Positions 1 through 23,636 of a DNA stretch of 64,000 bases are shown here, in pieces. The DNA comes from Patescibacteria group bacterium (GTDB lineage: Bacteria > Patescibacteriota > Minisyncoccia > JAHIHE01 > JAGLIN01). Both the position numbers and the translations under genes were made by a program. The stretch's first letter is position 1. Each line of letters starts with the position of its first letter. The DNA lies in the NCBI GenBank assembly GCA_019428855.1, contig JAHYJV010000002.1:1917-65916 (forward strand), in the 5' to 3' direction. The notes under the pieces were generated by a model. That model was not told the DNA's origin and did not search any database. It was given only the letters and a program-made list of their open reading frames with translations.

Positions 1-858
1 GCTGACGTACACATTATTGGCAAAGATATTTTGAGATTTCATGCTGCCATTTGGCCAGCTATACTCCTTTCTGCTGGACTTTCTTTGCCTAAAAAATTAT
101 TCGTTCATGGATTTATCACTTCGGATGGTCAGAAAATAAGTAAATCTTTGGGAAATGTTATTGATCCAATTGCAGTTGCTAAAAAATATGGGGTTGATGC
201 CCTGCGATATTATTTGCTTAAAGAAATTCCTTCTGGTGGAGACGGCAACTTTTCTTTCGAAAGGTTTGAGGAAATTTATAAATCAGATTTGCAAAATGGA
301 CTTGGAAATTTAATAGCCAGAACACTAACCATGCCAGAAAAATACTTTTATAATCAAGTTCCAAATATTAATTTGGAAAAAACGGGGCAGGCGGAAACAT
401 ATTCAAAGAATGATGAAAATAGAACTTTTGGCTCAAGTAGAAGTGATATTGAAAAAGTGTGGGAATTGATTGATGGCAGTATAAATGATTTTAAACTGGA
501 TCGAGCTTTGGGGCTTATTATTTCTTTTGGTGATATCAAAAAAGAAGATATAAATGGTGTAGTTCCAAAATTAAATAATTATATTGATTATTCAGAGCCC
601 TGGAAGTTAATCAAAGAAGATAAAGAACAAACAGCCATCGTAGTATATAATTTACTTGAATCTCTTCGCCAAATCGCCTGGATGATTCGCCCATTTTTGC
701 CAGAAACATCAGACAAAATTTTTGCTCAATTATTTGCAGATGAAAAAGAAAGAGAACATGAGCTTCATAGAACCTTAAAAGAAGCACAAAAATGGGGCGG
801 ATTAAAACCTGGCACGAAAATAAAAAAAGGCGAGATTATGTTCCCACGCTTAGTTTGA
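1..858 (+). CDS. metG: methionyl-tRNA synthetase, C-terminal part (5' end outside window)
   Basis: Frame is open from nt 1 and in frame with track ORF 31..858. 'GKDILRFHAAIWPA' and the KMSKS-type loop 'KISKSLGN' are typical of the end of the MetRS catalytic core, followed by a helical anticodon-binding region. TGA stop at 856-858. Confidence 0.9.
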   Translation, partial: ADVHIIGKDILRFHAAIWPAILLSAGLSLPKKLFVHGFITSDGQKISKSLGNVIDPIAVAKKYGVDALRYYLLKEIPSGGDGNFSFERFEEIYKSDLQNGLGNLIARTLTMPEKYFYNQVPNINLEKTGQAETYSKNDENRTFGSSRSDIEKVWELIDGSINDFKLDRALGLIISFGDIKKEDINGVVPKLNNYIDYSEPWKLIKEDKEQTAIVVYNLLESLRQIAWMIRPFLPETSDKIFAQLFADEKEREHELHRTLKEAQKWGGLKPGTKIKKGEIMFPRLV

Positions 859-972
859 TGCGATAGCCAGAGCAACTAGTATTAATAATATCAACATTAA
901 TATTTCTAGTCTCACTATTATTTCACATAATGCAAATCCAATATTTTTTGTGTTGATTATCTCATTGTTCAT
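850..972 (-). CDS. candidate 40-aa hydrophobic small protein (MNNEIINTKNIGFALCEIIVRLEILMLILLILVALAIASN)
   Basis: ATG at 972-970 lies 6 nt downstream of a strong SD AAGGAGAG (reverse complement of 979-986). The C-terminal half is a hydrophobic, TM-like stretch. It lies in the 168-bp metG/tatD gap and overlaps the metG stop by 9 nt. Track ORF 850..1218 is a longer extension that would run antisense through the tatD start. No homology evidence. Confidence 0.3.
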   Translation of the reverse strand: MNNEIINTKNIGFALCEIIVRLEILMLILLILVALAIASN

Positions 973-1026
973 AATTAACTCTCCTTTTTTGATTATAGCA
1001 TAAAAATAATTAAATATTAAATTTAT

Positions 1027-1809
1027 ATGATAGATACACATGCACATCTTGATTTCAATGAATTTGATGATGACCGAGAGGAAATTATCAAACGGTTTTT
1101 TGACAGTGGTGGTGAAAAGTTTGTAAATGTCGGTTGCACTATGCAGTCCAGTAAGCGTAGTTTTGAACTTGCTAAGAATCACGAAAATATTTTCGCTTCC
1201 GCTGGTATTCATCCGCATGATGCCGACACTGTCAATGAGACTTCGTTAAAAAAAATAGAAGAACTTGCTCAACATTACAAAGTTATTGCCATTGGTGAAA
1301 TTGGTCTTGATTTTTTCAAAAGCACATCTTCTCGTGAAGTTCAAATTACAGCACTTAAAGCTCAACTTGAACTGGCTGAAAATCACAAAATGCCAGTTAT
1401 TATTCATTGCCGAGATGCCTATAATGAATTACTTGATATTCTGAGAGAATATAAAACCTCCAATTGGAAAGGCGTAATTCATTGTTATACTGCCAGTTGG
1501 TCTATTGCCAGTGAATTTATTAACCTCGGATTTACCCTCGGATTTACAGGAATTGTCACATATTACAAGGATAAAAATGAATTTGACGGCGAGCCAGAAA
1601 TCTACAAGACTATTAAAAAGATGCCACTTGAACGAATTCTCGTTGAAACTGATTGCCCTTATCTATCCCCTGTTCCTGAACGAGGAAAAAGAAACGAACC
1701 ACTCTTCGTCAAATATGTCATTGAAAAAATTGCCGAAATCAGAAATTTAAGTTTTGACGAAATTGAAAAATTGACGAGTGAGAATGCGGAAAAGTTGTTT
1801 AATATTTGA
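1027..1809 (+). CDS. tatD: TatD-family metal-dependent hydrolase/DNase
   Basis: 260 aa. N-terminal 'IDTHAHLDF' metal-binding motif, 'GEIGLDF', 'PVIIHCRDA' and 'ETDCPYL' are the canonical TatD motifs. Confidence 0.9.
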   Translation: MIDTHAHLDFNEFDDDREEIIKRFFDSGGEKFVNVGCTMQSSKRSFELAKNHENIFASAGIHPHDADTVNETSLKKIEELAQHYKVIAIGEIGLDFFKSTSSREVQITALKAQLELAENHKMPVIIHCRDAYNELLDILREYKTSNWKGVIHCYTASWSIASEFINLGFTLGFTGIVTYYKDKNEFDGEPEIYKTIKKMPLERILVETDCPYLSPVPERGKRNEPLFVKYVIEKIAEIRNLSFDEIEKLTSENAEKLFNI

Positions 1810-1864
1810 AACTGAATTGCACATAAAATATCATTAGACTTATTTTGAATTATTTTTATAAAAA

Positions 1865-2701
1865 ATGAAGAAAAAATATAAGATTTTTACATTTATAATA
1901 AGTATAGGATGTCTTTTGATCACTTATGCTTATTTTGTTGAACCTAATATTCTGAAAGTTGAAAACCAAACAATAACACTAACCTGTCTTAAATCTGATA
2001 TTTCAGACATTAATTTTCTTCAAATTTCTGATTTGCATTTTTCAGAAGATACGCCAAAAGAAAAAATTGACCGACTTATAAACGAAATTACAAAACAGAA
2101 AGCTGTGGCGATTTTCATCACAGGAGATTTAATTACTAATAAAAATGGAATTGATAATATTTCATACTTTTTAGGAAATATTTCAAAATCTTTTCCAACA
2201 TTTATCGTTCTCGGAAATTGGGACTATTCAGCGTTAAATTATAAGGTAAAAGATTTTAAAAATATTCTAGAGAAAGCTGGTGCAAAAGTTCTTTTGAATG
2301 ATTCTTTTAATCTTAGTGTTGACAAGGAAAATATTGAATTAGTTGGTATTATTGATCCTGATTCAAGCGAAGATAGCAAAAAAGATTTAACTGAAGCTTT
2401 CGGCACAATTAATGACAGTAGATGTAAAATTCTATTATCCCATTCTCCAGGAATTATAAAAATTGCAACAGAAAAAGACATAGACTTAGTATTAGCAGGA
2501 CACACTCATGGCGGACAAGTCTATATTCCTTTTTTAAGTGAAACATTAATACCTTCTAACGAAGACGGAAAAGGTTTTGTAAAAGGGTCATACCAATATG
2601 AAAATACTCAGATGTATATTAATCGCGGAATTGGCATATCAGGATTACCATTTAGGTTTCTAAATTCGCCAGAAATAACATTGATTAATCTGACAAATTA
2701 A
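1865..2701 (+). CDS. membrane-anchored metallophosphoesterase (calcineurin-like)
   Basis: 278 aa. N-terminal TM helix, then 'ISDLHF', 'TGDL', 'GNWD' and 'GHTHGGQ', the conserved phosphoesterase motifs. Confidence 0.85.
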   Translation: MKKKYKIFTFIISIGCLLITYAYFVEPNILKVENQTITLTCLKSDISDINFLQISDLHFSEDTPKEKIDRLINEITKQKAVAIFITGDLITNKNGIDNISYFLGNISKSFPTFIVLGNWDYSALNYKVKDFKNILEKAGAKVLLNDSFNLSVDKENIELVGIIDPDSSEDSKKDLTEAFGTINDSRCKILLSHSPGIIKIATEKDIDLVLAGHTHGGQVYIPFLSETLIPSNEDGKGFVKGSYQYENTQMYINRGIGISGLPFRFLNSPEITLINLTN

Positions 2702-2731
2702 TTATTTCTTTCTTGTCAATTCACAAATTTT

Positions 2732-2767
2732 AAGATAAACTAAAAGCATAAGTTTATCTTTTTTGTT
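2732..2767 (+). terminator. intrinsic terminator after the phosphoesterase gene
   Basis: Stem aagataaac (2732-2740) pairs with gtttatctt (2752-2760), followed by TTTTGTT. Confidence 0.6.
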
Positions 2768-2917
2768 AACTAATTTGCAAAAAAATAAGAAATGAAAGTA
2801 TGTTTAATTTCTATGGAGATAAAGTTGAGAACGAAGAAAAAAATACAGAAAAAACCACTCAAGGAAATGAACTCAACTAAGCTGAATAGAAAATTATACT
2901 CCACAAACAACCACGAA

Positions 2918-2969
2918 TTTACATATATCCTTTTTTCTCACGGCCGTGAGAAAAAAGGATATATGTAAA
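2918..2969. repeat. 52-nt perfect palindrome P1 (core TCTCACGGCCGTGAGA)
   Basis: tttacatatatccttttttctcacgg|ccgtgagaaaaaaggatatatgtaaa: 26-nt arms that are exact reverse complements. It shares the core with palindrome P2 at 3543-3582. Confidence 0.95.
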
Positions 2970-3016
2970 AAATAAATTAATAATCGATATAATTATAATA
3001 TTTAATAAAAAATATT

Positions 3017-3547
3017 ATGAAGTTACTAATTACTGACAAATTTTTACTAAATTTATATAGCTATACTGAAAAGCTAGATAAAACTTTTGATATTTTTGCA
3101 TATAAAACAATTCAAGAAGCCTACTGTCCGTCTCTTTATGACTTAAAAAAACAATACGAAAGAGAAAAGAACAAACAAATATTTAGTCAATTAATTTATC
3201 GTCTGAAAAAAAATGGGTATATCAAAATTACAAATTTAAAAAACAATAAAGGAGTCGTCTTGACCCAAAAAGGAGCTGAAAAAGTTTTAAGAGCTAAACT
3301 CAAGACGGAAAAGAAAAGGAAAAGAGCCGACAAAAAATGGCAAATGATAATTTTTGACATTCCTGAAGAAAAAAGATACCTAAGAGATTTACTTCGAGAG
3401 AAGCTTCGAGCACTAGAGTATCAAATGCTTCAGCAAAGTATCTGGGTTTGTCCATACGATGTTCAAAAAGAAACTGAGATTTTATTAAGAGAGCACTCTA
3501 TCGATCCATATGTGAAAATATTTTTAATAGAGGAAATAGAGTTATAA
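3017..3547 (+). CDS. winged-helix plus Cas2-like/PaaX-C-like domain protein (orphan; no CRISPR array nearby)
   Basis: 176 aa. The middle region 'FSQLIYRLKKNGYIKITN...VLTQKGAEKVL' looks like a wHTH. The C-terminal 'WQMIIFDIPEEKRYLRDLLREKLRALEYQMLQQSIWVCPYD' resembles the N-terminal ferredoxin-fold strand-helix of Cas2 and the PaaX C-terminal domain. The functional call rests on motif recall only. Confidence 0.55.
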   Translation: MKLLITDKFLLNLYSYTEKLDKTFDIFAYKTIQEAYCPSLYDLKKQYEREKNKQIFSQLIYRLKKNGYIKITNLKNNKGVVLTQKGAEKVLRAKLKTEKKRKRADKKWQMIIFDIPEEKRYLRDLLREKLRALEYQMLQQSIWVCPYDVQKETEILLREHSIDPYVKIFLIEEIEL

Positions 3548-3582
3548 CCTTTTTACTCACGGCCGTGAGTAAAAAGGTTATA
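3543..3582. repeat. 40-nt perfect palindrome P2 (core ACTCACGGCCGTGAGT)
   Basis: tataacctttttactcacgg|ccgtgagtaaaaaggttata: exact 20-nt arms. The left arm contains the TAA stop (3545-3547) of the preceding gene. P1 and P2 share CC-TTTTT(T/A)CTCACGGCCGTGAG(A/T)AAAAA-GG. Confidence 0.95.
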
Positions 3583-3611: not shown

Positions 3612-6600
3612 ATGGAAAAATATAATCACAAAAAAATTGAAAAAAAATGGCAAAATGTTTGGGATGAAAGTGAAATATATCAAGCCAAAGATTCATCAAA
3701 AAAACCGAAATATTATTGTCTGATTGAATTCCCTTATCCATCTGGCGCAGGACTTCATGTGGGACATCTTCGTTCTCATATCGCCATTGATATTGTCGCT
3801 CGCAAAAAAAGAATGGATGGGTTTAATGTGATGTATCCGATTGGATGGGATGCTTTTGGCTTACCAACCGAAAATTTTGCCATCAAAACAAAAACACATC
3901 CAAAAGTTGTAACAAAAAATAATATCAAAAACTATAATCGTCAAATCAAAAGCTATGGCCCAAGTTTTGATTGGTCAAGAGAAATCAATACTACTGACCC
4001 AGAATATTATAAATGGACCCAGTGGATTTTTTTGAAGTTATTTAATAGTTTTTATGATGAAAAGCTAGACAAAGCAAGATTAATTGAAGAACTGAAAGTG
4101 CCAAAGAATTTCAATGAATTTGAAAAAAAAAGATATATTGATAATCACAGACTTGCTTATGAAAAAGAGATGGCGATTAATTGGTGTCCCAGTTGTAAAA
4201 TTGGACTTGCCAACGAAGAAGTTGTCAATGGAAATTGCGAAAGATGTGGTGCCTTGGCCGAGAGAAAAGTGATGAGACAATGGATGCTTCGCATTACAAA
4301 ATATGCCGACCGCTTAATCAAGGATTTGAAGACAGTTGATTATTTGGAAAAAATTAAATCTCAACAAATTAATTGGATTGGAAAATCAGAAGGAGTAACT
4401 ATTAAGTTCAAAGTGAAAAGTGGAAAAATAAAAGATACGAATGACTGCATTGCCACATCGAAAAAAACTCCTCACGATAATAACGAGATTATTGAAGTTT
4501 TCACTACGCGTCCAGACACTTTATTCGGATGCACATATATAGTTCTTTCACCTGAACATCCTTTAATTGAAAAATATAAAAATCAAATAGAAAATTTTAA
4601 GGAGGTTGAAAAATATCAAGATAAAGCTAGCAATAAATCAGATTTGGAAAGAACGGATTTGGCCAAAGAAAAAACAGGAGTGGAACTGAAGGGAATCGAG
4701 GCTATCAATCCAGCAAACAATGAAGAAATTCCCATTTGGATTGCTGATTATGTTCTGGCTTCCTATGGTACTGGTGCGATTATGGCAGTTCCAGCACACG
4801 ATGAAAGAGATTTTGAGTTTGCAGAAAAGTTTGGTATTGCAATTAGGGATGTAGTCGCTCCATTTTTTCAGGCAGATATTGGAAATGAGAACGCCTTACG
4901 ACCTGACAAGAAAACAGTTCGCCGAAGACTAGTTACTGCTTTTGTAAAACATTGGAAAGAAGACAAATATCTTTGTCTTGATTGGAAGAAATTTAAGTGG
5001 CATACCCCAATTATTGGAGGGATTGAAGGGGGAGAAACTCCCGAAGAAGCAGGCTTGCGAGAGATCAGAGAAGAAACTGGTTTTCAAAATATGAAATTTG
5101 TGCATTATCTAGGAGGTGAGCTGCATAATTCTTTTTTTGCTAGACATAAAGATGAAAATCGATATTCAATTGAATATGGAGTATTATTTGAATTGATTGA
5201 TGATAAATGGGAAAAACCAAGTGAAGAAGAAATAAAAAATCATAAAGCTGTTTGGATTAATGCGAAGGAAATGGAAACTTTTTTGAATTTGGAAAGTAAA
5301 AAAATATTATGGCACCGATTGAATGGTAATTTTGAATGTTTTAAAGGAGACGGTGTTAATATAAACTCTGGTTTTTTGGACGGAATGGAAACTATTAAAG
5401 CGAAAAAAGAAATTTCCAATTGGCTCGTAAAAAATAAGCTTGGTCAAAAAGCAGTGAATTTCAAACTTCGCGATTGGATTTTTTCGCGCCAACACTATTG
5501 GGGTGAGCCAATCCCGATTATCAAATGCCGAGAGTGTGGCTTGAAAAAATTAAACATTAAAATGGAATTAAATTTTCGAGTAAATAAAGCTTGGAATCAA
5601 ATAATTGATAATAAAAAAACAATTGAAACTCGAGCACTAAATCCACAAGAAAAAGATAAATTCTTCGGCGATATCAAAGTTGGAGATTTAGTGCGGTTTA
5701 ATAACAAGAATACCCAGGAATTTGAAATTGTCAGAATCAACAAGGTCTATAATTTCAAAAACTTAAGCGAATTATTTGAAACGCAAAAAATAGTTAAAAA
5801 AATATTTACTGATGTAAAAATTAAAAATATATCAGAACTAAAAAAATGCTTTAGCTTTACGGAAGATTATCTAGACCGAATTGAAAAAAATGGTCTAGTT
5901 GGATGGGAATTTGAAAAGATAGACATTACTGAAAATATTTCTCTCTCAGAAAAAGAACTTCCACTGGAACTTCCTAATGTCAAAAATTACGAGCCAACGG
6001 AAACTGGAGAATCGCCACTAGCTAATATAAAAAAATGGGTTGAGATTAAATGTCCAATTTGTGGTGGCAATGCCAAAAGAGAAACAGACACCATGCCAAA
6101 TTGGGCTGGTTCAAGCTGGTATTTTTTGAGATACACAGATCCTGATAATTCAAAAGAATTTGCTTCACAAAAAAATTTACAGCAATGGATGCCAGTTGAT
6201 TTATATAACGGCGGAATGGAACATACCACTCTTCATCTTCTCTATTCTCGATTTTGGCATAAATTTTTATTTGACCTTGAATTTGTCCAGACTTCAGAGC
6301 CATATAAAATGCGTCGCTCGCACGGAATGGTTTTGGCAGAAGATGGTCAGAAGATGAGCAAATCGCGAGGAAACGTCGTCAATCCTGATGAAGTTATTGG
6401 CGAATATGGAGCAGACACTGTTAGATTATATGAAATGTTTATGGGTCCTTATAGCGATGCTATTCCCTGGAACACAACCAGTTTAATTGGTATGAATCGA
6501 TTTTTGCAAAGGATTTGGAATCTACAATCGAAAATTTCAAATACCAAATTACCAAAAAAAGAAACAATTCTGATTGCGACAAATAATCCCGGAAAATTAA

Positions 6601-7610
6601 AAGAACTAAAAAGACATTTTAAAAATTTCCAGATTATTTCTTTAAATGATATTGATAAATCTATTGAAGAACCAGAAGAAAATGAAAAAACATTTGCAGA
6701 TAATTCACTTCTCAAAGCAAGATATTATGCCCAGAAAACAGGCTATCTGACAGTTGCAGATGATAGTGGACTTTGCGTTAATGCACTTGATGGAAGACCA
6801 GGAGTCTTTTCAAGTCGCTATGCTGAGGGTAATGACAAGAAAGGTTGCGTAAAGCTTTTGAAAGAGTTGGAAGGTCTTTCCGACCGATCAGCACACTTTG
6901 AAGCTGTAGTGACGATATATGACTCCAAAAAGGATGAATATCATCAATTTGAGGGTCAGTGTGACGGTGAAATTTTAAGAAAATTCGAGGGAGATAGTGG
7001 GTTTGGATATGATCCAATTTTTATGCCAAATGGTTTTGCAAAATCCTTCGGGCAGTGTTCCATTGAGGAGAAATATTTATTTGATCACAGACAAAAAGCT
7101 ACAAAAAAACTAATCGCTTATCTTGAGAATAATTCGAATAATGATGAAAATAAAATCGAATCATTAATCCACAAAACCATCAAAAAAGTTTCAGAAGATA
7201 TTGATAACTTGAAGTTCAACACTGCCATTTCTCAACTAATGATTTTGGCTAATGAAATAGAAAAAGAAGATAAAATATCATCGGCCAACTTTAAAATATT
7301 TTTGAATTTGCTGTCCCCTTTTGTTCCGCACATCACGGAAGAAATCTGGAAAAATCTAGATGAGAGGCAAAGCATTCACTTGCAGACTTGGCCACAATTC
7401 AATCCACAATTTATCAAAGATACAGAAATAAATTTCGTCATTCAAATCAACGGAAAACTTCGCGATCAAATCATAGTCCCCACTGATATCTCAAAAGAAG
7501 AAGCAAAAAAACTCGCTCTGGAAAGCGAGAAAGTTCAAAAATGGGTTGCAGGAAAGGAAATTAGAAAAGTGTTTTTTGTGAAAGGGAGACTGGTTAATAT
7601 AGTTATCTAA
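3612..7610 (+). CDS. leuS: leucyl-tRNA synthetase with three nested extra domains (1332 aa)
   Basis: All LeuRS landmarks are present and in order: HIGH-type 'HVGH', Zn knuckle 'CPSCK...CERCG', CP1 editing motif 'TTRPDTLFG', 'AVPAHDERDFEFA', 'RDWIFSRQHYWGEPIP', 'KMSKSRGN', and anticodon-binding 'FNTAISQLM'. One uninterrupted frame. Confidence 0.95.
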   Translation: MEKYNHKKIEKKWQNVWDESEIYQAKDSSKKPKYYCLIEFPYPSGAGLHVGHLRSHIAIDIVARKKRMDGFNVMYPIGWDAFGLPTENFAIKTKTHPKVVTKNNIKNYNRQIKSYGPSFDWSREINTTDPEYYKWTQWIFLKLFNSFYDEKLDKARLIEELKVPKNFNEFEKKRYIDNHRLAYEKEMAINWCPSCKIGLANEEVVNGNCERCGALAERKVMRQWMLRITKYADRLIKDLKTVDYLEKIKSQQINWIGKSEGVTIKFKVKSGKIKDTNDCIATSKKTPHDNNEIIEVFTTRPDTLFGCTYIVLSPEHPLIEKYKNQIENFKEVEKYQDKASNKSDLERTDLAKEKTGVELKGIEAINPANNEEIPIWIADYVLASYGTGAIMAVPAHDERDFEFAEKFGIAIRDVVAPFFQADIGNENALRPDKKTVRRRLVTAFVKHWKEDKYLCLDWKKFKWHTPIIGGIEGGETPEEAGLREIREETGFQNMKFVHYLGGELHNSFFARHKDENRYSIEYGVLFELIDDKWEKPSEEEIKNHKAVWINAKEMETFLNLESKKILWHRLNGNFECFKGDGVNINSGFLDGMETIKAKKEISNWLVKNKLGQKAVNFKLRDWIFSRQHYWGEPIPIIKCRECGLKKLNIKMELNFRVNKAWNQIIDNKKTIETRALNPQEKDKFFGDIKVGDLVRFNNKNTQEFEIVRINKVYNFKNLSELFETQKIVKKIFTDVKIKNISELKKCFSFTEDYLDRIEKNGLVGWEFEKIDITENISLSEKELPLELPNVKNYEPTETGESPLANIKKWVEIKCPICGGNAKRETDTMPNWAGSSWYFLRYTDPDNSKEFASQKNLQQWMPVDLYNGGMEHTTLHLLYSRFWHKFLFDLEFVQTSEPYKMRRSHGMVLAEDGQKMSKSRGNVVNPDEVIGEYGADTVRLYEMFMGPYSDAIPWNTTSLIGMNRFLQRIWNLQSKISNTKLPKKETILIATNNPGKLKELKRHFKNFQIISLNDIDKSIEEPEENEKTFADNSLLKARYYAQKTGYLTVADDSGLCVNALDGRPGVFSSRYAEGNDKKGCVKLLKELEGLSDRSAHFEAVVTIYDSKKDEYHQFEGQCDGEILRKFEGDSGFGYDPIFMPNGFAKSFGQCSIEEKYLFDHRQKATKKLIAYLENNSNNDENKIESLIHKTIKKVSEDIDNLKFNTAISQLMILANEIEKEDKISSANFKIFLNLLSPFVPHITEEIWKNLDERQSIHLQTWPQFNPQFIKDTEINFVIQINGKLRDQIIVPTDISKEEAKKLALESEKVQKWVAGKEIRKVFFVKGRLVNIVI
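4854..5342 (+). other. Nudix hydrolase domain inserted in LeuRS (about aa 415-577)
   Basis: Perfect Nudix box GX5EX7REUXEEXGU: 'GGIEGGETPEEAGLREIREETGF' (aa 469-491, nt 5016-5084). It lies between 'ERDFEFAEKFGIAIRDV' and 'GVNINSGFLDG', which are contiguous in ordinary bacterial LeuRS. Confidence 0.8.
5541..5927 (+). other. ASCH/PUA-like domain inserted in LeuRS (about aa 644-772)
   Basis: 'WNQIIDNKKTIETRALNPQEKDKFFGDIKVGDLVRFNN...EFEIVRINKV' matches the ASCH pattern (G-K-K-T-hEhR ... hKhGD). It lies between 'GEPIPIIKCRECG' and 'ELPLELPNV'. Assigned by motif recall; weaker than the other two. Confidence 0.5.
6561..7127 (+). other. RdgB/Ham1 (ITPase) domain inserted in LeuRS (about aa 984-1172)
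   Basis: 'ILIATNNPGKLKEL', 'EENEKTFADNSLLKARYYA', 'VADDSGLCVNALDGRPGVFSSRYA', 'GFGYDPIF' and 'FDHRQKA' align along the whole length with E. coli RdgB motifs (ATGNxGKxxE, ExGxTFxENAxxKA, ADDSGLxVxxLxGxPGxYSARY, GFGYDPxF, SHRxxA). Confidence 0.85.
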
Positions 7611-7636
7611 ATATTAAAATATAATTTACACAAAAT

Positions 7637-7669
7637 AAAATCGAGGATTAAATAATCTTCGATTTTATT
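7637..7669 (+). terminator. intrinsic terminator after leuS
   Basis: aaaatcgagga (7637-7647) pairs with tcttcgatttt (7656-7666), with one G.U, followed by ATT. Confidence 0.55.
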
Positions 7670-8082: not shown

Positions 8083-9129
8083 TCAATACTTACGAAATTT
8101 TACTGAAAATTGCTTAAAGAATTGATCTTTTATAATCTCATGAGCTTCTCCACTTTTATCTAAAAGGTTGATTTTTGTCCTTCTCCTTTTTTGCTTTCCT
8201 GTTCTATAAGAAGCCTCTCCGTCTGGAATTATTACAAACAAACCTTCATCATATTTATCTAAAGCCTTAATTTTAAATTCTTCTAATTCAGAAACAACTT
8301 TTTCCTCAAAAAATGAAGGAATCTTATTTCCATCTGACTCCAAGAACTTCTGATTTTCACTTTTTTTTACATAAGTAATTAAGTTTTTACATACAAAATC
8401 AGCTGTACTAGAATCATATCTTCTGGTTTTAACCTGGCATGGTATTTTAGATATATTATTTCCTACGGTTACAATTATAAAAAAGTCAATTTTTTCATCA
8501 ACATCTTCCTCTGCTGTAGATGATTCAATCCTAAAACTGTCAACTTTTGATAATTGAGTAATATTATTTAACCCTTCTATAAGACTTTCTGCTGCCAATT
8601 GACCACAAATACCTCGTTTGTTTGCCTTATATGATAAATCATATTTATCCCCTTTCTCTTTCAATAATTCAAAATATTCCTGATTATTACTATATTGTTT
8701 TTCTAAATCGTTCCAAATATTATTTATTGCTATAATTTTATCTTTCTCAGGTAAATTATTATCGTTTTTTATAGATTTAATTATATTTGTAATTTTATCC
8801 ATCCAAATTGCATCTTCTATCGCAAGCTCTCTTAAAATCTTAAAATCCTTTCCTTCCTTTCCTTTCTCTATTTTAAGCCTTGTGAAATTTCTTTGCATAT
8901 TAGCCCGTACTCCTAACATGGCATCTAAAATAATAATATCTTTTTCTTCTTTTATTCCCAACTTTTCAATTATTTTTTCAGTTATTTGTTCCAAATTATC
9001 AGACTTTATCTCTGGACATAATTCTAATTCAGCTTTAATTCCTTCATAAATAGCATCATCAACGATTTCATGATTTCCTTCTGTTTCCAATGAAATATCG
9101 ATTGTAGGCGGTATATCAAATTTTTGCAT
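8083..9129 (-). CDS. hypothetical protein with C-terminal PD-(D/E)xK-like motif set
   Basis: 348 aa, clean ORF. The N-terminal ~170 aa are helical with no recognisable motif. The C-terminal half has 'QLAAESL...', 'DEKIDFFIIV' and, about 10 aa later, 'PCQVKT', an E...D...(Q/E)xK arrangement like restriction-endonuclease-fold nucleases. Inference only. Confidence 0.4.
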   Translation of the reverse strand: MQKFDIPPTIDISLETEGNHEIVDDAIYEGIKAELELCPEIKSDNLEQITEKIIEKLGIKEEKDIIILDAMLGVRANMQRNFTRLKIEKGKEGKDFKILRELAIEDAIWMDKITNIIKSIKNDNNLPEKDKIIAINNIWNDLEKQYSNNQEYFELLKEKGDKYDLSYKANKRGICGQLAAESLIEGLNNITQLSKVDSFRIESSTAEEDVDEKIDFFIIVTVGNNISKIPCQVKTRRYDSSTADFVCKNLITYVKKSENQKFLESDGNKIPSFFEEKVVSELEEFKIKALDKYDEGLFVIIPDGEASYRTGKQKRRRTKINLLDKSGEAHEIIKDQFFKQFSVKFRKY

Positions 9130-9230
9130 AAAATATATTTCTTAGTTTCTAGAATTTAACGCAATAGTGTTATTATTAATTAAAATTCGAAATATTAAAT
9201 TAAAACTATTTCATCTAACAAATTTACTTA

Positions 9231-10502
9231 TTATATTTTCAACATTTTTACAAACTCTCTCTCTTCTTTCCTTTTAAAAGGTCCGACAAGCACCAAATTC
9301 AATTTTTTATTCATGAATATATCCTTTGCCACGCGTTGGATGTCTTCAATTTTCACTTTGTCTAGTAAAGCGAATTTTTCTTCTGGTGTTTGTATATTTT
9401 CTGTTAAAAGCTCTTGGTCGGCAAAATAATTTGCCATCGCTGAAGAAGATTCAAGACGCATAATTGTCCTACTCTTTATTTGATCTTTAACCTTTTTCAA
9501 TTCTTCTTTAGAAACTCCTTTAACGGCAATCTTCTTGTATTCTGTTAATATTACATTAATTGCCTTTTGAACATTTTTTATATCAACCCCAGCCTGAGTG
9601 GTCAAATATCCAGTATCAGTATAAAATTCTGGACTAGAAAAAATATAATAAGCCAAACCTAGTTTTTCTCTGACAGAAATGAAAAGGCGTGAACTCATTC
9701 CTCCGCCGAGAATTACTGAAAGTAAAGTTAGTGCATGCTTATCTGGATGTTTTGTATCATATCCCCTAACTCCGATACTCAAGTGAACTTGATTAGTTTG
9801 CTTGGGATAGATAAGTATTTTTGATTTGCTTTGATTTTCACAAATCTCTATCGCCTTTTCTCTTTTACCTTCTTTAAAATTCTGAAAATATTTTCTTGCC
9901 ATTTTAACAGCTGAATTGCTTTCAATCGCGCCCGCAATAACTAAAGTTGCATTACTTGCTACATAATGATTTCTGAAATAGCTGATTAATTCTTTTCGAT
10001 TTATTGAGTTTACAGTTTCAGGTGTGCCGATAATTTCTCGTCCCATTGGGGTTTTTCCATACAAGAGCGTTTCAAATAAATCAGCCACATATCTCGGTGG
10101 ATCATCTTTAACCATTTTAATCTCTTCCTGAATAGTACCTCTTTCTCTTTCAATCTCTTTTGACAAAAAAAGGGAATTAAAAAGCATATCAGAAATAACA
10201 TCCAAGGCGACATCAAGATGAAAAACTGGAACCTTAACATAAAAACCAGTATATTCTTTTGAAGTAAAAGCATTAAAATCCGCTCCAATCCTTTCTAGTT
10301 CTTCAGAAATCATTAGGGCATTAGGTCTTTTCTTCGTCCCTTTAAAGAATAAATGCTCTAAATAATGTGAAATTCCACTAATTTTTTCCGTTTCAAACCG
10401 AGAACCTGTTCCGACAAGAACAAGAACTGTCACAGTTTTTGTTCCTTCCATTGGCACAGTAATAATTCTTAGGCCATTTGAGAGTTTGTTTTTCTTGAAC
10501 AT
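9231..10502 (-). CDS. M16-family (insulinase/pitrilysin-like) zinc peptidase
   Basis: 423 aa. Inverted zinc motif 'HYLEHLFFKGT' (HxxEH) and a downstream 'E...E' region. Confidence 0.9.
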   Translation of the reverse strand: MFKKNKLSNGLRIITVPMEGTKTVTVLVLVGTGSRFETEKISGISHYLEHLFFKGTKKRPNALMISEELERIGADFNAFTSKEYTGFYVKVPVFHLDVALDVISDMLFNSLFLSKEIERERGTIQEEIKMVKDDPPRYVADLFETLLYGKTPMGREIIGTPETVNSINRKELISYFRNHYVASNATLVIAGAIESNSAVKMARKYFQNFKEGKREKAIEICENQSKSKILIYPKQTNQVHLSIGVRGYDTKHPDKHALTLLSVILGGGMSSRLFISVREKLGLAYYIFSSPEFYTDTGYLTTQAGVDIKNVQKAINVILTEYKKIAVKGVSKEELKKVKDQIKSRTIMRLESSSAMANYFADQELLTENIQTPEEKFALLDKVKIEDIQRVAKDIFMNKKLNLVLVGPFKRKEEREFVKMLKI

Positions 10503-10547
10503 TTATTTAATATTAATTTAAAAATTTTTATCCATAATAACAAACAA

Positions 10548-11654
10548 CTAAAAATATTTATGAGCAGATTTAATACATTCAGCGATTAAGTTAGCACATT
10601 GTTTGAGATCTTTCAAATCAAGAACTTCGACTGGAGAATGTATATATCTAGTAGCAACGCAAAGTCCGCCAGAAGGTATCCCTTCTTTGGTCATGTTTAT
10701 AATCGCCGCGTCGGTCATTCCTCCTTCAGTAACACTTAGCTGATATGGAATTTTGGCATTTTCAGACGTTTCTTTCATCCATTCTAGAACTGATTGTGAA
10801 ACCACAATACCCACCCCTTGAGCATCGCTTACTGTAATCGACGGACCTTCTCCAATCGAAAGCGAAGATTGTTTCTTTTCCACGCCAGGATGATCTCCGG
10901 GTATATTCACATCAGTTGCAATAGCGACATCTGGATTCAAGCTATATGCTGAAGTTCTCGCTCCTTTGAGGCCTACTTCTTCTTGAACTGTACCGACAAA
11001 ATGAACTTTTGCTTTTACTTTACTTTTACTTATAAGTCTTGCAGCTTCAATCATCATTACAATTCCAGCGCGATTATCAAACGCTTTTCCAGTAACCATA
11101 TCCCCTGCTAATGATTCAAATTTTCGATCCAAAGTTATCGTATCACCAACTCGAACTCCAATTTTTTCAGCATCTTTTTTGTCATTTGCTCCAATATCGA
11201 GATACATATCTCCAATTGAAATGACTTTTTTTGATTCCTCTGCTTTCATAATATGAGGAGGTTTTGAACCCACAACGCCTATAATTGATTTATTTTTGGT
11301 ATGAATAAGAACCCTTTGATTCAAGAGCGTTTGATCGAACCATCCACCAGATTTTGAAAAATATATAAAACCATTGTCGTCAATATATTTTACCATAAAT
11401 CCAATTTCATCCATATGAGCTGCAATCATAACCACCGGACCATCTCCATTTTTGGTAGCGATTAAATTACCAAGCTTGTCCGTGTAAACTTCATCAACAT
11501 AAGGACTTATCTCTTTTTCTAAAATAGCCCTTACTTTTTTCTCATGTCCTGAAATTCCATGAGCATTAGAAAGTTTTTCCAATAAATTTTTGATTTCCAC
11601 TAAATTTTCCTTTTTTGGTACTGATTTTGCTGTGTTCTTCTTTTTTGATTCCAT
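10548..11654 (-). CDS. M42-family aminopeptidase (FrvX/glutamyl aminopeptidase-like)
   Basis: 368 aa. 'ISGHEKKVR', 'AAHMDEIGF', 'KAFDNRAG', 'VQEEVGLKGA' and 'IHSPVE' are typical of M42 peptidases. Confidence 0.85.
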   Translation of the reverse strand: MESKKKNTAKSVPKKENLVEIKNLLEKLSNAHGISGHEKKVRAILEKEISPYVDEVYTDKLGNLIATKNGDGPVVMIAAHMDEIGFMVKYIDDNGFIYFSKSGGWFDQTLLNQRVLIHTKNKSIIGVVGSKPPHIMKAEESKKVISIGDMYLDIGANDKKDAEKIGVRVGDTITLDRKFESLAGDMVTGKAFDNRAGIVMMIEAARLISKSKVKAKVHFVGTVQEEVGLKGARTSAYSLNPDVAIATDVNIPGDHPGVEKKQSSLSIGEGPSITVSDAQGVGIVVSQSVLEWMKETSENAKIPYQLSVTEGGMTDAAIINMTKEGIPSGGLCVATRYIHSPVEVLDLKDLKQCANLIAECIKSAHKYF

Positions 11655-16041: not shown

Positions 16042-16161
16042 TCTCCGGCGATGACCTACTCTCCCAACCCCGTACGGGGCAAGTACCATCAGCGCTAATG
16101 AGCTTAACTTCTGAGTTCGGAATGGTATCAGGTGTAACATCACCGCTAAAATCACCAGAGA
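16042..16161 (-). rRNA. rrf: 5S rRNA
   Basis: Reverse complement contains 'CCTGATACCATTCCGAACTCAGAAGTTAAGC' and 'GGGAGAGTAGGTCATCGCCGGAGA'. The terminal helix pairs UCUCUGGUGAU with AUCGCCGGAGA. Confidence 0.9.
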
Positions 16162-16317
16162 ATTTGTATACTAAATTATAATAGTGTATATAAAATTTTC
16201 AATATGTCAAATATAAAATTTTTTACATTCAATTGAATTATATAAATAGTTTTACAAACATTAAATGCCAGTTAATCCTTTTATTGCATTTTAATTTAAA
16301 AATGCAATTACATTAAA

Positions 16318-19375
<3,058 letters not shown>

Positions 19376-19683
19376 TAATGTAAGATTAACTAGCAATTAA
19401 AATTTGCAATTTAATATTTTATAATATTTTTTACCTATTTATATATATTCAATTGTCAATGATCATTCAAATCTTATATCTTCCGTTCATCTTCTAAATA
19501 TTAGAAAATGAATTAAAACTATAATTTTAAAAAATAAAACCGCCTTGTTCAGAGGCGATTTTAATCTTGTGATAATCACAAAATTAACCGCCATTTAATC
19601 ACTTAAATTCAATTCCATTTTTTTCATAACTTTATATTATGAATTAATGATTTTGCAAAATTAAAACTAAACATTACTTACAT

Positions 19684-19711
19684 AGAATAGCACAACTAAT
19701 AATACTGTCAA
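19684..19711 (-). promoter_or_regulatory. candidate promoter of the 23S-5S unit (TTGACA-16-TATTCT)
   Basis: Reverse complement of tgtcaa (19706-19711) and agaata (19684-19689). Same architecture and the same GTGCTATT -10 context as the 16S P2 promoter. Confidence 0.5.
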
Positions 19712-19782
19712 GTCTTAATTAATAATGCTTAAAACATAGAAAAAAAATTATTTTTTCAAGGAAGATTATACCTATTTATTGC

Positions 19783-19821
19783 TAAAATAAAAGAAGATAG
19801 ATAAGATTGATCTATCTTCTT
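19783..19821 (-). terminator. intrinsic terminator after the 227-aa membrane-protein gene
   Basis: Perfect 12-bp stem aagaagatagat (19791-19802) / atctatcttctt (19810-19821), followed on the minus strand by TTATTTTA. Confidence 0.7.
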
Positions 19822-19857
19822 TTTAGTGCTGTTAGACAAGTATTGAACAACAAGTTT

Positions 19858-20541
19858 CTATTTTAACTTATCTTTCAATTCATCCAGTAGTTCTTTCGCA
19901 TGGTATTGTCCACCCAATCCAAATGCAAGTCCTCCTGCAATGGCAAGCATTAAAGATAAACCACCTGCAAAAATCTTAATAATTTCCATACCAATTTGAA
20001 TTTGCTCCAGTACAACTAAGAATGTAAATATAATAATCGTCCACTTAAATAAAAATGCAACCAAATGATACATTCGAATTCCACTAGCTTTTGCCAGACC
20101 GTCTGTTGATTCGTACACAAGTTGAGAAATAATAACACCAATTGTCAAGCTAATAATCGCTAGAAATAAACTAGGTAGATAACTTAATATTTGTGCTAGA
20201 AATTCCGATACTTGTGGGATATCCATTATATCTACTACAAACTTTAAAGTAAATATCAGAATAAACCATTTAACCAACCAGCCTACGAGTTTCGAAATCG
20301 AAAAATTTATATTAATTCTTTTAAAACATTTTTTTATCCCAGCTTTTTCCAGCGATTTATCAATACTCATTTTTTCAAAAAGAATTTTTGTTAATTTTTC
20401 AAGTTCAACTGCAAACATCAAACCAATGAAGAAAACAAAGACTGCCGAAAAGATAGAACCCTCTATAAGAAATGCTTGATAAAAATTATAGATCGAACTT
20501 GGAATCTCGTAATAAACATCTGTAAATAAATTATATTGCAT
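19858..20541 (-). CDS. multi-pass membrane protein with repeated TM-helix motifs (MscS-associated 'conserved TM helix'-like)
   Basis: 227 aa, at least 4 TM segments with a repeated pattern, and a C-terminal 'GLGGQYHAKELLDELK'. The functional call is tentative. Confidence 0.6.
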   Translation of the reverse strand: MQYNLFTDVYYEIPSSIYNFYQAFLIEGSIFSAVFVFFIGLMFAVELEKLTKILFEKMSIDKSLEKAGIKKCFKRININFSISKLVGWLVKWFILIFTLKFVVDIMDIPQVSEFLAQILSYLPSLFLAIISLTIGVIISQLVYESTDGLAKASGIRMYHLVAFLFKWTIIIFTFLVVLEQIQIGMEIIKIFAGGLSLMLAIAGGLAFGLGGQYHAKELLDELKDKLK

Positions 20542-20785
20542 TTATAACACCCCCTTTCTTTTTATTTTTTTAATTAAATGTTATTAATTTTTTAAGAAAT
20601 TTATGAAAAAATATTATCTAAAATTGTTTTTATGTCTATGATAATATTATAACACATATTAATTATACTGCAATTTTATTTCGCAAGTTCTATATTGATT
20701 TTAAAATTATATTTTTTAGAAATAAAATCTTAGAAAGTTATCTCTGAGATTTTATTTGTGAACATTAAATTTTGGTGGTGTTTGT

Positions 20786-21191
20786 TTGAAAAAGTCAGAA
20801 CTCATTTTGAACAAAATACAGATTATGCTTGTTCAGAATAGAAAACCCCGCAAAAAGCGAGGGGCAAAAAATTTTCAATATTTAGGTTTTGCTACTTGTG
20901 GGATTTGTGGCTATGCCATAACCGCCGAAAGACATATTAAAAAAAGTGGTTTGAAATTTGTTTATTATTATTGCAACCACAAAAGCAAAACTGTTGCTCG
21001 CACTGAAAATTGTTTTTTTGCGGGAAGAAGCTTTAACCGAACAAGTAAAAAACCTTTGTCAAAAAGTTTCTTTGCCTGATGAGTGGTGGAAAAGAAAACA
21101 ATTGAGGAAAAATTATCGGATTTTGAACGAAAAGGTAATCATTGGCTCGAACTCATGCGAAACTGAATTATTGAAGCCAACCAAGCCGTAA
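20786..21191 (+). pseudogene. frameshifted fragment of a large serine recombinase (zinc-ribbon region only)
   Basis: Frame A: 'FATCGICGYAITAERHIKKSGLKFVYYYCNHKSK', the recombinase Zn-ribbon pattern CGxCG...YYxC. It continues only in another frame as 'FLREEALTEQVKNLCQKVSLPDEW'. The N-terminal resolvase catalytic domain is absent. Confidence 0.6.
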
Positions 21192-21199
21192 ATCTCTAT

Positions 21200-21239
21200 A
21201 AACAAGAAAATCCCTCAAGGATGAGAGATTTTCTTGTTT
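21200..21239 (-). terminator. hairpin downstream of tRNA-Ala (candidate terminator)
   Basis: aaacaagaaaatc (21200-21212) pairs with gattttcttgttt (21227-21239). The T-rich segment is inside the stem, so strength is uncertain. Confidence 0.35.
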
Positions 21240-21367
21240 CCATCGGCTCGAACCGTAGAATTTTGGCGGGAATTATTTCGGCGGAATTCAAAACCCCCTG
21301 GAATTTCTTGGAGAAAACCAATGCCGAGGGGCGAAGCCCCGAGGCAACTTCTTTAACAAATTCGGAC

Positions 21368-21444
21368 TGGTGGACCCAACAGGATTCGAACCTGCGACCC
21401 CCTGCTTGCAAAGCAGGTGCTCTAGCCAACTGAGCTATGGGCCC
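21368..21444 (-). tRNA. tRNA-Ala (UGC), CCA encoded
   Basis: Reverse complement GGGCCCATAGCTCAGTTGGCTAGAGCACCTGCTTTGCAAGCAGGGGGTCGCAGGTTCGAATCCTGTTGGGTCCACCA. Cloverleaf fits, with anticodon loop TTTGCAA. Confidence 0.95.
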
Positions 21445-21555
21445 ATAATTTTTTTCGTTTTATATAATAATATTTGAACATCTTATACTGCTTGATTATT
21501 ATATCAAAATCAACTGTATTCGACTATATCTTAAATATATAAAAGCTAAAACGAG

Positions 21556-21629
21556 TGGGCGTACCTGGACTCGAACCAGGGACCTTTACATTATCAGTGT
21601 AACGCTCTAACCAGCTGAGCTATACGCCC
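21556..21629 (-). tRNA. tRNA-Ile (GAU)
   Basis: Reverse complement GGGCGTATAGCTCAGCTGGTTAGAGCGTTACACTGATAATGTAAAGGTCCCTGGTTCGAGTCCAGGTACGCCCA. Anticodon loop CTGATAA. No encoded CCA. Confidence 0.95.
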
Positions 21630-21954
21630 GGATGCTAATTTCTAATTTTAAATCAATTTCTAATAACTGAATTTTTTATATTAAAAATTAAGACATTAGT
21701 TAAAAATAATGAAATTCACTTCTCTATTATAACAAAAATCGCATCTTATGCAATACTATTGTATAGATGCGATTTTTGTTTTCACTTTTATTACAAACTT
21801 TGTGCAATTGTCCTGAAGGCAATTTTGTTCCTATCTACTCGAAAATAGATAAGCCTGTATTACCAACAGCCAAACATGTAGATGATATTAAAATCATTCT
21901 ACAGACGATCTCGGTGAGTGTATTTCTTTAGACTAAAGAAATAACTTTCTCCCT

Positions 21955-23421
<1,467 letters not shown>

Positions 23422-23636
23422 AATGATAATCTATTCATTGAAGAATAATTTATCTCAAAATATAATAAAGCATAATCAATGGACATAAAAATGTCAATGT
23501 AATTATGCATAAAAGTTTTATCTTGGAATTGTCTATAACCGGATAAGTTTATAGACTCGCAGGACAACTGCACAAAGTTTATATAATTGTGTGTGATTTA
23601 TATTTAATTGTTAATGAACAATTTAATTACTAAGTC

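Follow-up and report, generated by a model that had tools for sequence, protein, structure and literature searches.

Bacterial aminoacyl-tRNA synthetases (aaRSs) have a textbook conserved architecture, and extra catalytic domains with no role in editing are rare among them and mostly discussed for eukaryotes. What, then, is encoded by a bacterial gene for leucyl-tRNA synthetase (LeuRS) whose single reading frame also holds the motifs of three further enzymes? The gene, leuS, lies at positions 3612 to 7610 on the forward strand of a 64,000-nucleotide stretch of DNA from a Patescibacteria group bacterium (assembly GCA_019428855.1, contig JAHYJV010000002.1, positions 1,917 to 65,916), referred to throughout as the window. 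An earlier note made from the sequence alone had described a LeuRS interrupted by Nudix, ASCH-like and RdgB/Ham1 domains. Here we find that the protein is a genuine bacterial-type LeuRS with three complete extra domains in its surface loops, and that this triple form is the rare extreme of a widespread, apparently undescribed swapping of domains at fixed LeuRS sites. We read it as a multi-enzyme polypeptide, in which an intact LeuRS serves as permissive carrier for three autonomous nucleotide/nucleoside enzymes that act independently of aminoacylation, a reading that we regard as probable, if by a modest measure.

An intact LeuRS core surrounds the inserts

Inspection of the locus reveals an uninterrupted open reading frame (ORF) of 1332 codons plus a stop, with zero internal stops, whose product is identical to database protein P0001. 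The whole protein scores 930 bits against the NCBIfam model TIGR00396 (leuS_bact; cutoff 548.4) and matches Thermus thermophilus (Tt) LeuRS (1h3n) with an E value of 3e-183. Alignment to the Tt enzyme shows a host that is collinear and complete, with breaks at Tt 363-376, 445/446 and 696-719. Class I signatures are kept, HIGH as HVGH at aa 49 and KMSKS at aa 914, and Pfam recovers pieces of the class I catalytic domain together with the editing domain at aa 254-418 and Anticodon_1 at aa 1181-1295. The CP1 editing domain carries its T-rich motif (TTRPDT, aa 298) and conserved Asp (GTGAIMAVPAHDERD, aa 386) and is predicted to fold correctly. Every motif quoted in the earlier note was found where the note had placed it, in an intact frame and with the LeuRS landmarks in order.

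Two departures from Tt LeuRS concern the host itself. The leucine-specific domain is absent, and an extra 35-aa segment at aa 146-180 has no counterpart in the Tt enzyme. Because this segment is present clade-wide, insert-free relatives included, we regard it as unremarkable.

Insert boundaries were set by comparing the protein with close relatives in which the insert in question is missing. On the forward strand, the N-terminal core (aa 1-415, positions 3612-4856) comprises the first Rossmann half with HIGH, the ZN-1 knuckle CERCG at aa 209, the aa 146-180 segment and the first ~3/4 of CP1. Insert 1 (aa ~416-573, 4857-5330) is followed by core aa 574-643 (5331-5540), which align to Tt 377-444 and contain the end of CP1, the stretch leading back into the catalytic domain and, at aa 639-643, the first zinc knuckle (CRECG). 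Past insert 2 (aa 644-774, 5541-5933), core aa 775-977 (5934-6542) supply the second zinc knuckle, CPICGG, at aa 814, the second Rossmann half and KMSKS. Insert 3 (aa ~978-1174, 6543-7133) occupies the linker before the anticodon-binding domain, and the anticodon-binding helical and C-terminal domains complete the protein (aa 1175-1332, 7134-7607; Tt 720-876). Subtraction of the ~486 aa of inserts leaves a core of ~846 aa, compared with 837-893 aa for insert-free relatives, so that the earlier figures of ~481 aa removed and 851 left are slightly corrected while the conclusion of a normal LeuRS size stands. Judged from conservation, a core ratio of nonsynonymous to synonymous substitution rates (dN/dS) of 0.075 and orthologous synteny, the protein probably leucylates tRNA-Leu.

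A Nudix hydrolase lies within the editing domain

The first insert is located inside CP1, and not just after it as originally proposed. Pfam NUDIX matches aa 462-561 (E 3e-11), and a strict Nudix box of the form GX5EX7REUXEEXGU stands at aa 469-490 (GGIEGGETPEEAGLREIREETG); the domain first placed at aa 415-577 is thereby confirmed and refined to aa ~416-573. The predicted alpha/beta/alpha Nudix fold appears complete, aligning over 144 of the 146 residues of a whole Nudix protein, and when CP1 is modeled with its guest, 179 of 183 residues of the host domain superpose at 1.1 A. The nearest characterized Nudix folds include ApnA and diadenosine polyphosphatases. Among relatives, 75 of 94 nested Nudix copies keep the strict box.

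The same Nudix family is also encoded by more than 100 free-standing genes of Patescibacteria, with ~160-aa products that match at about E 1e-50; both genomic contexts inspected are unrelated to leuS. Some of these genes are named "leuS" in public (NCBI) records, for example the 157-aa proteins P0317 and P0330, and were suspected to be neighbors of leuS. They do not adjoin it, which makes the name an annotation error. One free-standing member (L004, 5400-6486) begins 4 nt past a HAD_2 hydrolase gene, and HAD_2 is also among the Pfam domains listed for LeuRS P0079.

The middle insert is a divergent ASCH domain

Identification of the second insert required its family. Pfam ASCH (PF04266) matches neither the whole window protein nor the isolated insert at E values up to 10, and a search of PDB sequences with a profile of the insert family returned noise only. 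In contrast, 14 of 23 members of that family do match PF04266 (best E 1.9e-4). The family alignment (A1, n=23) has K25, R30, N33, P34, E36, F41, G42, Y109, G117 and W121 invariant. Its octapeptide GxKxxExR reads NKKTIETR at aa 667-674 of the window copy, placing it in the "GKER" type; Lys and Arg of the octapeptide are invariant in the 23 members, Glu/Asp is universal, and the first position is Gly by consensus but Asn in the window copy. An AlphaFold model of the insert (pLDDT 91.3) retrieved 2z0t in Foldseek (E 4e-8, TM-score 0.67/0.80), along with 1s04, 1xne, 1t62 (DUF984), 3s9x ("ASCH domain") and 3iuw. Judged by family Pfam matches, motif and predicted fold, the middle insert is thus a divergent ASCH/PUA-like domain; the pattern first noticed at aa 644-772 proves sound and extends to exactly aa 644-774. 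Of the Pfam matches that the earlier note expected, NUDIX, Ham1p_like, Anticodon_1 and the class I pieces were found, and only PF04266 was missing from the window copy. The JGI database labels some carriers (P0046, P0276, P0283) as "ASC-1-like (ASCH)".

The domain is a clean insertion of 131 aa between CxxCG and N[IV]xLSEK with zero host residues lost. It falls between the zinc knuckles CRECG and CPICGG, equivalent to Tt 445/446, rather than in the leucine-specific region to which it had been assigned.

Members of this ASCH subfamily also occur as free-standing genes of ~130 aa and in a Nudix-ASCH fragment (P0294). A further member is nested in the GAD region of a class II aspartyl-tRNA synthetase (AspRS) at L002 122-~2240 (JGI Ga0394881_0034527), in an organism that reads UGA as Gly (code 25). 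Code 11 splits this gene into five or more fragments; read with code 25, it encodes one AspRS of ~705 aa holding a complete ASCH domain. Four free-standing homologues of 130-135 aa (P0273, P0275, P0278 and P0280; L001 4001-4393) show Trp at a family-invariant Gly (VWD for VGD, LVWW for LVGW), which indicates code-25 genomes in which the gene caller used UGA as Trp.

What such domains may do is suggested by recent work. All 19 of 19 ASCH proteins tested removed N4-acetylcytidine (ac4C) from tRNA, and the Lys/Glu pair of the octapeptide was essential for this removal by GKER-type ASCH (preprint 10.64898/2026.02.27.708502).

A full-length RdgB/Ham1 precedes the anticodon-binding domain

The third insert is the most readily recognized. 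PF01725 (Ham1p_like) matches aa 986-1169 across profile positions 1-185 of 186 (E 1e-55; 188.6 bits, cutoff 22.5), and TIGR00042 (RdgB/HAM1) gives 166.1 bits against a cutoff of 145.35. All RdgB/Ham1 motifs are present: ATNNPGK at aa 989 ([ST]xNxxK), DDSG at aa 1050, GxPGxxSxR at aa 1061, FGYDP at aa 1131 and DHRQKA at aa 1158 (HRxxA). The nested domain aligns to PDB chain 4bnq (195 residues) from residue 3 to 194, the motifs being conserved, and it shares 40-49% identity with hundreds of free-standing RdgB proteins of ~200 aa across its whole ~190 aa. Motif retention among nested copies is 25-33 of 34. The full profile bears out the claim of a complete RdgB/Ham1, first put at aa 984-1172 and now at aa ~978-1174, as well as its position before the anticodon-binding domain.

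The gene is authentic, orthologous and under purifying selection

The sequence comes from a metagenome contig and could in principle be a chimeric assembly, a fusion of neighboring genes by frameshift or a decaying LeuRS paralogue. We hold the chance of such an artefact or non-functional gene to be negligible. The frame is continuous, host sequence resumes precisely past each insert, and catalytic motifs are intact. Independent ENA, NCBI and JGI assemblies contain the Nudix-ASCH-Ham1 architecture at 65-79% identity (P0002-4, P0006, L006, L007), which excludes chimeric assembly for practical purposes.

Gene order points the same way. The order metG-tatD-...-leuS-...-M42 peptidase is common to loci whose leuS has three, two or one inserts, and an insert-free leuS (L023) has tatD upstream too; these genes are thus orthologues sharing a locus, and a spare paralogue is correspondingly less likely. 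The more detailed order metG, tatD, metallophosphoesterase, PaaX_M-like gene, leuS and, further on, M16/M42 peptidases is kept across metagenome-assembled genomes of Paceibacteria whatever the insert content (window 31-3547 and 8083-11654; L006-L020, L023). Apparent giant LeuRS genes of ~1900 aa, suggested by long match spans, turned out to be the neighboring metG matching the class I core.

Selection on each part was estimated by the Nei-Gojobori method against the two closest triple-insert orthologues, for which dS is near saturation and the values are approximate. The core has dN/dS of 0.075-0.09, the Nudix insert 0.19-0.27, the ASCH insert 0.045 and the Ham1 insert 0.15-0.20. Purifying selection is clear on the core and on every insert.

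Examination of the junctions revealed no direct or inverted repeats and no shift in GC content, and a recent insertion by a mobile element was rejected on these grounds. Protein splicing was likewise rejected, as there is no HINT/intein Pfam match and the junction residues are wrong (G|LKK...ITE|NIS, KLP|KKE and alike); Foldseek matches to BIL-domain folds were insignificant (probability 0.2-0.35). With regard to separate expression of the inserts from internal promoters, promoter-like matches within the gene are at chance level (25 versus 20.4 +/- 5.1).

Guests vary among relatives at four fixed sites

To place the window gene among its relatives, we mapped the best 120 of 8000 LeuRS matches, all from Patescibacteria (Paceibacteria/Parcubacteria) and 837-1722 aa long, on a hidden Markov model of the core. 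In this sample insertions fall at four hotspots, core positions ~272, ~403, ~479 and ~687, and the commonest state is a Nudix domain of ~147 aa at site 403 in proteins of ~946 aa. Site 479 takes ASCH and site 687 takes Ham1. Precomputed Pfam lists add other guests, namely Ser_hydrolase/abhydrolase, HAD, PD-(D/E)XK, DUF559 and nucleotidyltransferases. The lists of P0042, P0047, P0069, P0079 and P0020-P0033 contain PDDEXK_3, DUF559/MTES_1575 nuclease-like, NTP_transf_5/aminoglycoside nucleotidyltransferase-like, HAD_2 and Ser_hydrolase/abhydrolase domains, the last of which sits at site ~403 in a clade of 1352-aa proteins. Two or three Nudix copies occur in P0054, P0062, P0066, P0070, P0072, P0079, P0085, P0091, P0106 and P0108. 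At site ~272, which lies inside the editing domain, the extra copy is in every case without a strict Nudix box and is possibly degenerate or regulatory.

Among 79 species-representative loci, all three guests (Nudix, ASCH and Ham1) are present in 2, Nudix with ASCH in 1, Nudix with Ham1 in 5, ASCH with Ham1 in 5 and Nudix only in about 20, while the rest have none of the three. Every combination, from none through single, double and triple forms (none, N, A, H, NH, AH, NA, NAH, by initial of the guest), is seen at 70-86% core identity, and a neighbor-joining tree of the core alone shows presence to be patchy even in the small clade of the window protein. When a library was clustered at 50% identity, the entire Ham1-in-LeuRS clade collapsed to one representative, so that the triple form is confined to a narrow lineage. 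The uniqueness implied by the earlier note is not supported: a Nudix domain within LeuRS is a common state in Patescibacteria, and several assemblies contain the triple form.

Sequence divergence is faster in the inserts than in the core, and by and large the inserts co-diverge with it. Discordance is seen for the Nudix domain, whose identity is 47% in near relatives versus 58-61% in distant ones; either some lateral exchange or rate heterogeneity could account for this.

Such a pattern raises the possibility of selfish or near-neutral passenger cassettes, spread by recombination between LeuRS alleles at permissive loops and persisting, with little benefit, since an inexact deletion in an essential gene would be lethal. 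The patchy, combinatorial distribution at short evolutionary distance would fit, as would the clean bounds of the ASCH indel, the Nudix discordance and the nuclease-type domains (PD-(D/E)XK, DUF559) at the same hotspots in relatives. Against it, all three inserts are clearly under purifying selection, and most copies keep their catalytic motifs. The junctions show neither flanking repeats nor a compositional break nor intein/HINT features, and the guests are ordinary housekeeping enzymes rather than mobility proteins. We consider passenger cassettes unlikely.

Public annotation of these proteins is confused. LeuRS proteins of ~1200-1350 aa (P0003, P0016, P0020, P0027) are recorded, in several cases by NCBI, as "RdgB/HAM1 family non-canonical purine NTP pyrophosphatase". 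With such records and the Nudix genes misnamed "leuS", the numbers of leuS, rdgB and Nudix genes in metabolic reconstructions of Patescibacteria will come out wrong.

Carrier or coupled enzyme

According to the multi-enzyme reading, the single functional leuS of this organism would encode a polypeptide of four activities, LeuRS plus three small enzymes predicted to be competent. The Nudix guest would be a MutT/ApnA-like pyrophosphohydrolase acting on oxidized or aberrant nucleotides or dinucleoside polyphosphates, the ASCH guest a putative N4-acetylcytidine amidohydrolase of GKER type, and the Ham1 guest an ITP/XTP pyrophosphatase for deaminated purine nucleoside triphosphates. Each guest would have been captured from a family that is also free-standing in Patescibacteria or other bacteria, and each is expected to fold as a separate lobe whose two ends rejoin the host loop. 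Their shared theme would be sanitation and salvage of the nucleotide/nucleoside pool, and this suits the window bacterium, which has a tiny genome and, like other Patescibacteria, must scavenge nucleotides. The LeuRS would be a permissive, essential and constitutively expressed carrier from whose catalysis the guests are presumably independent, and the window gene would be one case of hydrolase domains turning over like cassettes, across the lineage, at four fixed hotspots. As for the selective reason for nesting, we infer it rather than observe it.

The carrier reading is drawn from three results: the inserts are dispensable in close orthologues, unrelated guests occupy the same sites, and free-standing homologues are abundant. 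Alignment with related LeuRS shows each insert to be present in some and absent in other orthologues of 77-85% core identity. One of the two options offered by the earlier note was that domain insertion serves to retain these enzymes in a minimal genome, and it is this option that the free-standing families, the unrelated guests and the patchy presence favor.

Several observations weigh against guests that act wholly on their own. The nesting of one ASCH subfamily in both LeuRS and AspRS hints at a role directed at tRNA. CP1 and Nudix are modeled as a fairly rigid, compact unit (pTM 0.79), which may indicate a functional interface. RdgB is normally a homodimer and LeuRS is monomeric, which raises the question of whether the nested copy can dimerize. 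The resemblance of the Nudix guest to ApnA hydrolases is weak and non-specific (E ~1e-3, mostly the Nudix box), and its sequence and fold neighbors single out no one substrate subfamily among MutT, Ap4A hydrolase, ADP-ribose pyrophosphatase, RppH and others. In ~8 related loci (L037, L038, L039, L041, L068, L074, L075, L076), a further and more distantly related Nudix gene (170-230 aa, E 1e-9 to 1e-12 against the insert profile) follows leuS in the same orientation, 0.7-1.8 kb downstream, which may be a weak neighborhood association or may reflect phylogenetic non-independence. Finally, an accessory helix-turn-helix domain confers strong tRNA binding on some archaeal ASCH proteins (preprint 10.64898/2026.02.27.708502), another hint at tRNA.

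Functional coupling would turn these points to account. In that case the synthetase body would be a tRNA- or adenylate-binding platform for its inserts, with ASCH deacetylating ac4C on bound tRNA or binding tRNA as a PUA-like module, Nudix clearing Ap4A/ApnA, aminoacyl-adenylate-type by-products or a nucleotide cap, and Ham1 shielding the ATP site from ITP/XTP. The independent nesting of one ASCH subfamily in synthetases of class I and class II, the uniform removal of ac4C from tRNA by the ASCH proteins tested, the compact CP1+Nudix prediction, the ApnA/diadenosine polyphosphatases among the nearest Nudix folds and the downstream Nudix genes are all consistent with coupling. In the closest pair of orthologues, moreover, the constraint on ASCH matches that on the core (dN/dS 0.045 vs 0.075). 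Against coupling stand the dispensability of each insert at such short distances, the unrelated domains accepted by the hotspots, the common free-standing homologues unlinked to leuS and the faintness of the likeness to ApnA hydrolases, which is largely a matter of the Nudix box. Nor is ac4C known to occur in bacterial tRNA-Leu. Coupling of this kind strikes us as doubtful.

A bolder proposal combines elements of both, namely that patescibacterial aaRSs are exchangeable "docking scaffolds". Loop hotspots of LeuRS and of at least one AspRS would be cassette sites at the protein level, where small hydrolases are gained, swapped and lost by recombination, and some guests, notably ASCH as a tRNA ac4C eraser, would exploit the tRNA binding of the host. 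We put this forward as an unlikely, speculative idea. If true, it would constitute an unrecognized way to build machines for tRNA and nucleotide quality control and to move genes in ultra-small genomes.

Comparison with known systems

Like the canonical bacterial enzymes (T. thermophilus 1H3N/2BYT; E. coli 4AQ7), the window LeuRS has a Rossmann domain with HIGH and KMSKS, ZN knuckles, CP1, an anticodon-binding domain and a C-terminal domain in the same order. It differs from them in its ~486 extra residues forming three nested domains, its lack of a leucine-specific domain and the clade-specific aa 146-180.

Synthetases with added domains are already known, as editing inserts, as "ileS_w_GNAT" and as the appended domains of eukaryotes. 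Editing inserts, such as CP1 of Leu/Ile/ValRS and INS of bacterial ProRS, resemble the guests described here in that a hydrolase sits as a separate lobe in a loop of the catalytic domain. They differ in that they act on the mis-acylated product of their own enzyme and are universal in their family, whereas the guests in the window protein are generic nucleotide/nucleoside hydrolases, dispensable in close orthologues. As CP1 is itself an insertion, Nudix in CP1 in the Rossmann domain amounts to three levels of nesting. According to a survey of domain insertions from 2026, the LeuRS editing domain occurs only as an insert and never hosts one (PMC13114784); the Nudix domain inside CP1 contradicts this statement for Patescibacteria. 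The curated NCBIfam entry NF040702 ("ileS_w_GNAT") likewise describes a bacterial class Ia synthetase with an unrelated enzyme domain, an N-acetyltransferase, but its host is IleRS with a single GNAT guest, and it matches the window LeuRS only weakly, through the shared core.

Each guest may also be set against its free-standing kin. Free-standing RdgB/Ham1 proteins (4BNQ, 1K7K, 1VP2) are homodimers of ~200 aa with which the nested copy shares its level of identity and all conserved motifs, while the copy itself is embedded in a 1332-aa enzyme of monomeric type. GKER-type ASCH proteins (TthASCH 2DP9, EOLA1, TRIP4-ASCH) and the YqfB ac4C amidohydrolases have the same PUA-like beta-barrel and the Lys/Glu/Arg of the octapeptide; the window copy stands apart as very divergent (below Pfam detection, Asn for the first Gly), as a member of a subfamily nested in aaRSs and in that its activity is predicted. 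Beyond aaRSs, the lineage-specific BEAN/HABAS insertions of RNA polymerase beta/beta' are likewise polyphyletic, recur at the same sites and interrupt an essential information-processing enzyme (PMC11515920). Those are mostly non-catalytic structural modules, however, in contrast to the LeuRS guests, which are complete enzymes with conserved active sites.

Our literature search found nothing describing a LeuRS with Nudix, Ham1 or ASCH, or aaRS insertions in the Candidate Phyla Radiation, in keeping with the earlier remark that no aaRS of this triple architecture had been described. An essential class I synthetase thus tolerates three complete foreign enzymes, one within its own editing domain. 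The wider pattern comprises four hotspots, about ten families of guest domains, rapid gain and loss among close relatives and an ASCH domain also in a class II AspRS. This bears on how ultra-small genomes keep and express housekeeping functions. For protein engineering, it identifies four LeuRS loops that naturally accept domains of 130-200 aa, apparently without loss of function, and it suggests the hypothesis that an aaRS may lend its tRNA binding to ASCH-type ac4C deacetylases.

Other features of the window

Two hairpins flank leuS. A perfect palindrome of 20+20 nt (3543-3582) lies ~30 nt ahead of the leuS start, where it overlaps the last part of the PaaX_M/Cas2-like gene upstream, and is probably a terminator or the boundary of the leuS transcription unit. 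A hairpin with 17-nt arms directly past the leuS stop (7634-7669) is a probable terminator. So bounded, leuS resembles a monocistronic unit.

A six-frame search of the window returned no stand-alone Nudix, ASCH or Ham1, although 64 kb says little about the genome. The histidyl-tRNA synthetase encoded on the reverse strand at 55487-56812 is an ordinary enzyme of 441 aa with no inserted domain, so that nesting is not general to the synthetases of this genome, at least within the window.

The rRNA locus occupies 16043-23423 of the reverse strand and consists of 16S (21957-23423), tRNA-Ile, tRNA-Ala, an ORF of 227 aa, 23S (16313-19376) and 5S. The ORF (19858-20541) is protein-coding, contains a transmembrane helix of mechanosensitive-channel type and sits between the tRNAs and 23S. 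The 23S itself measures 3064 nt compared with the 2925 positions of the model, making it ~140 nt longer.

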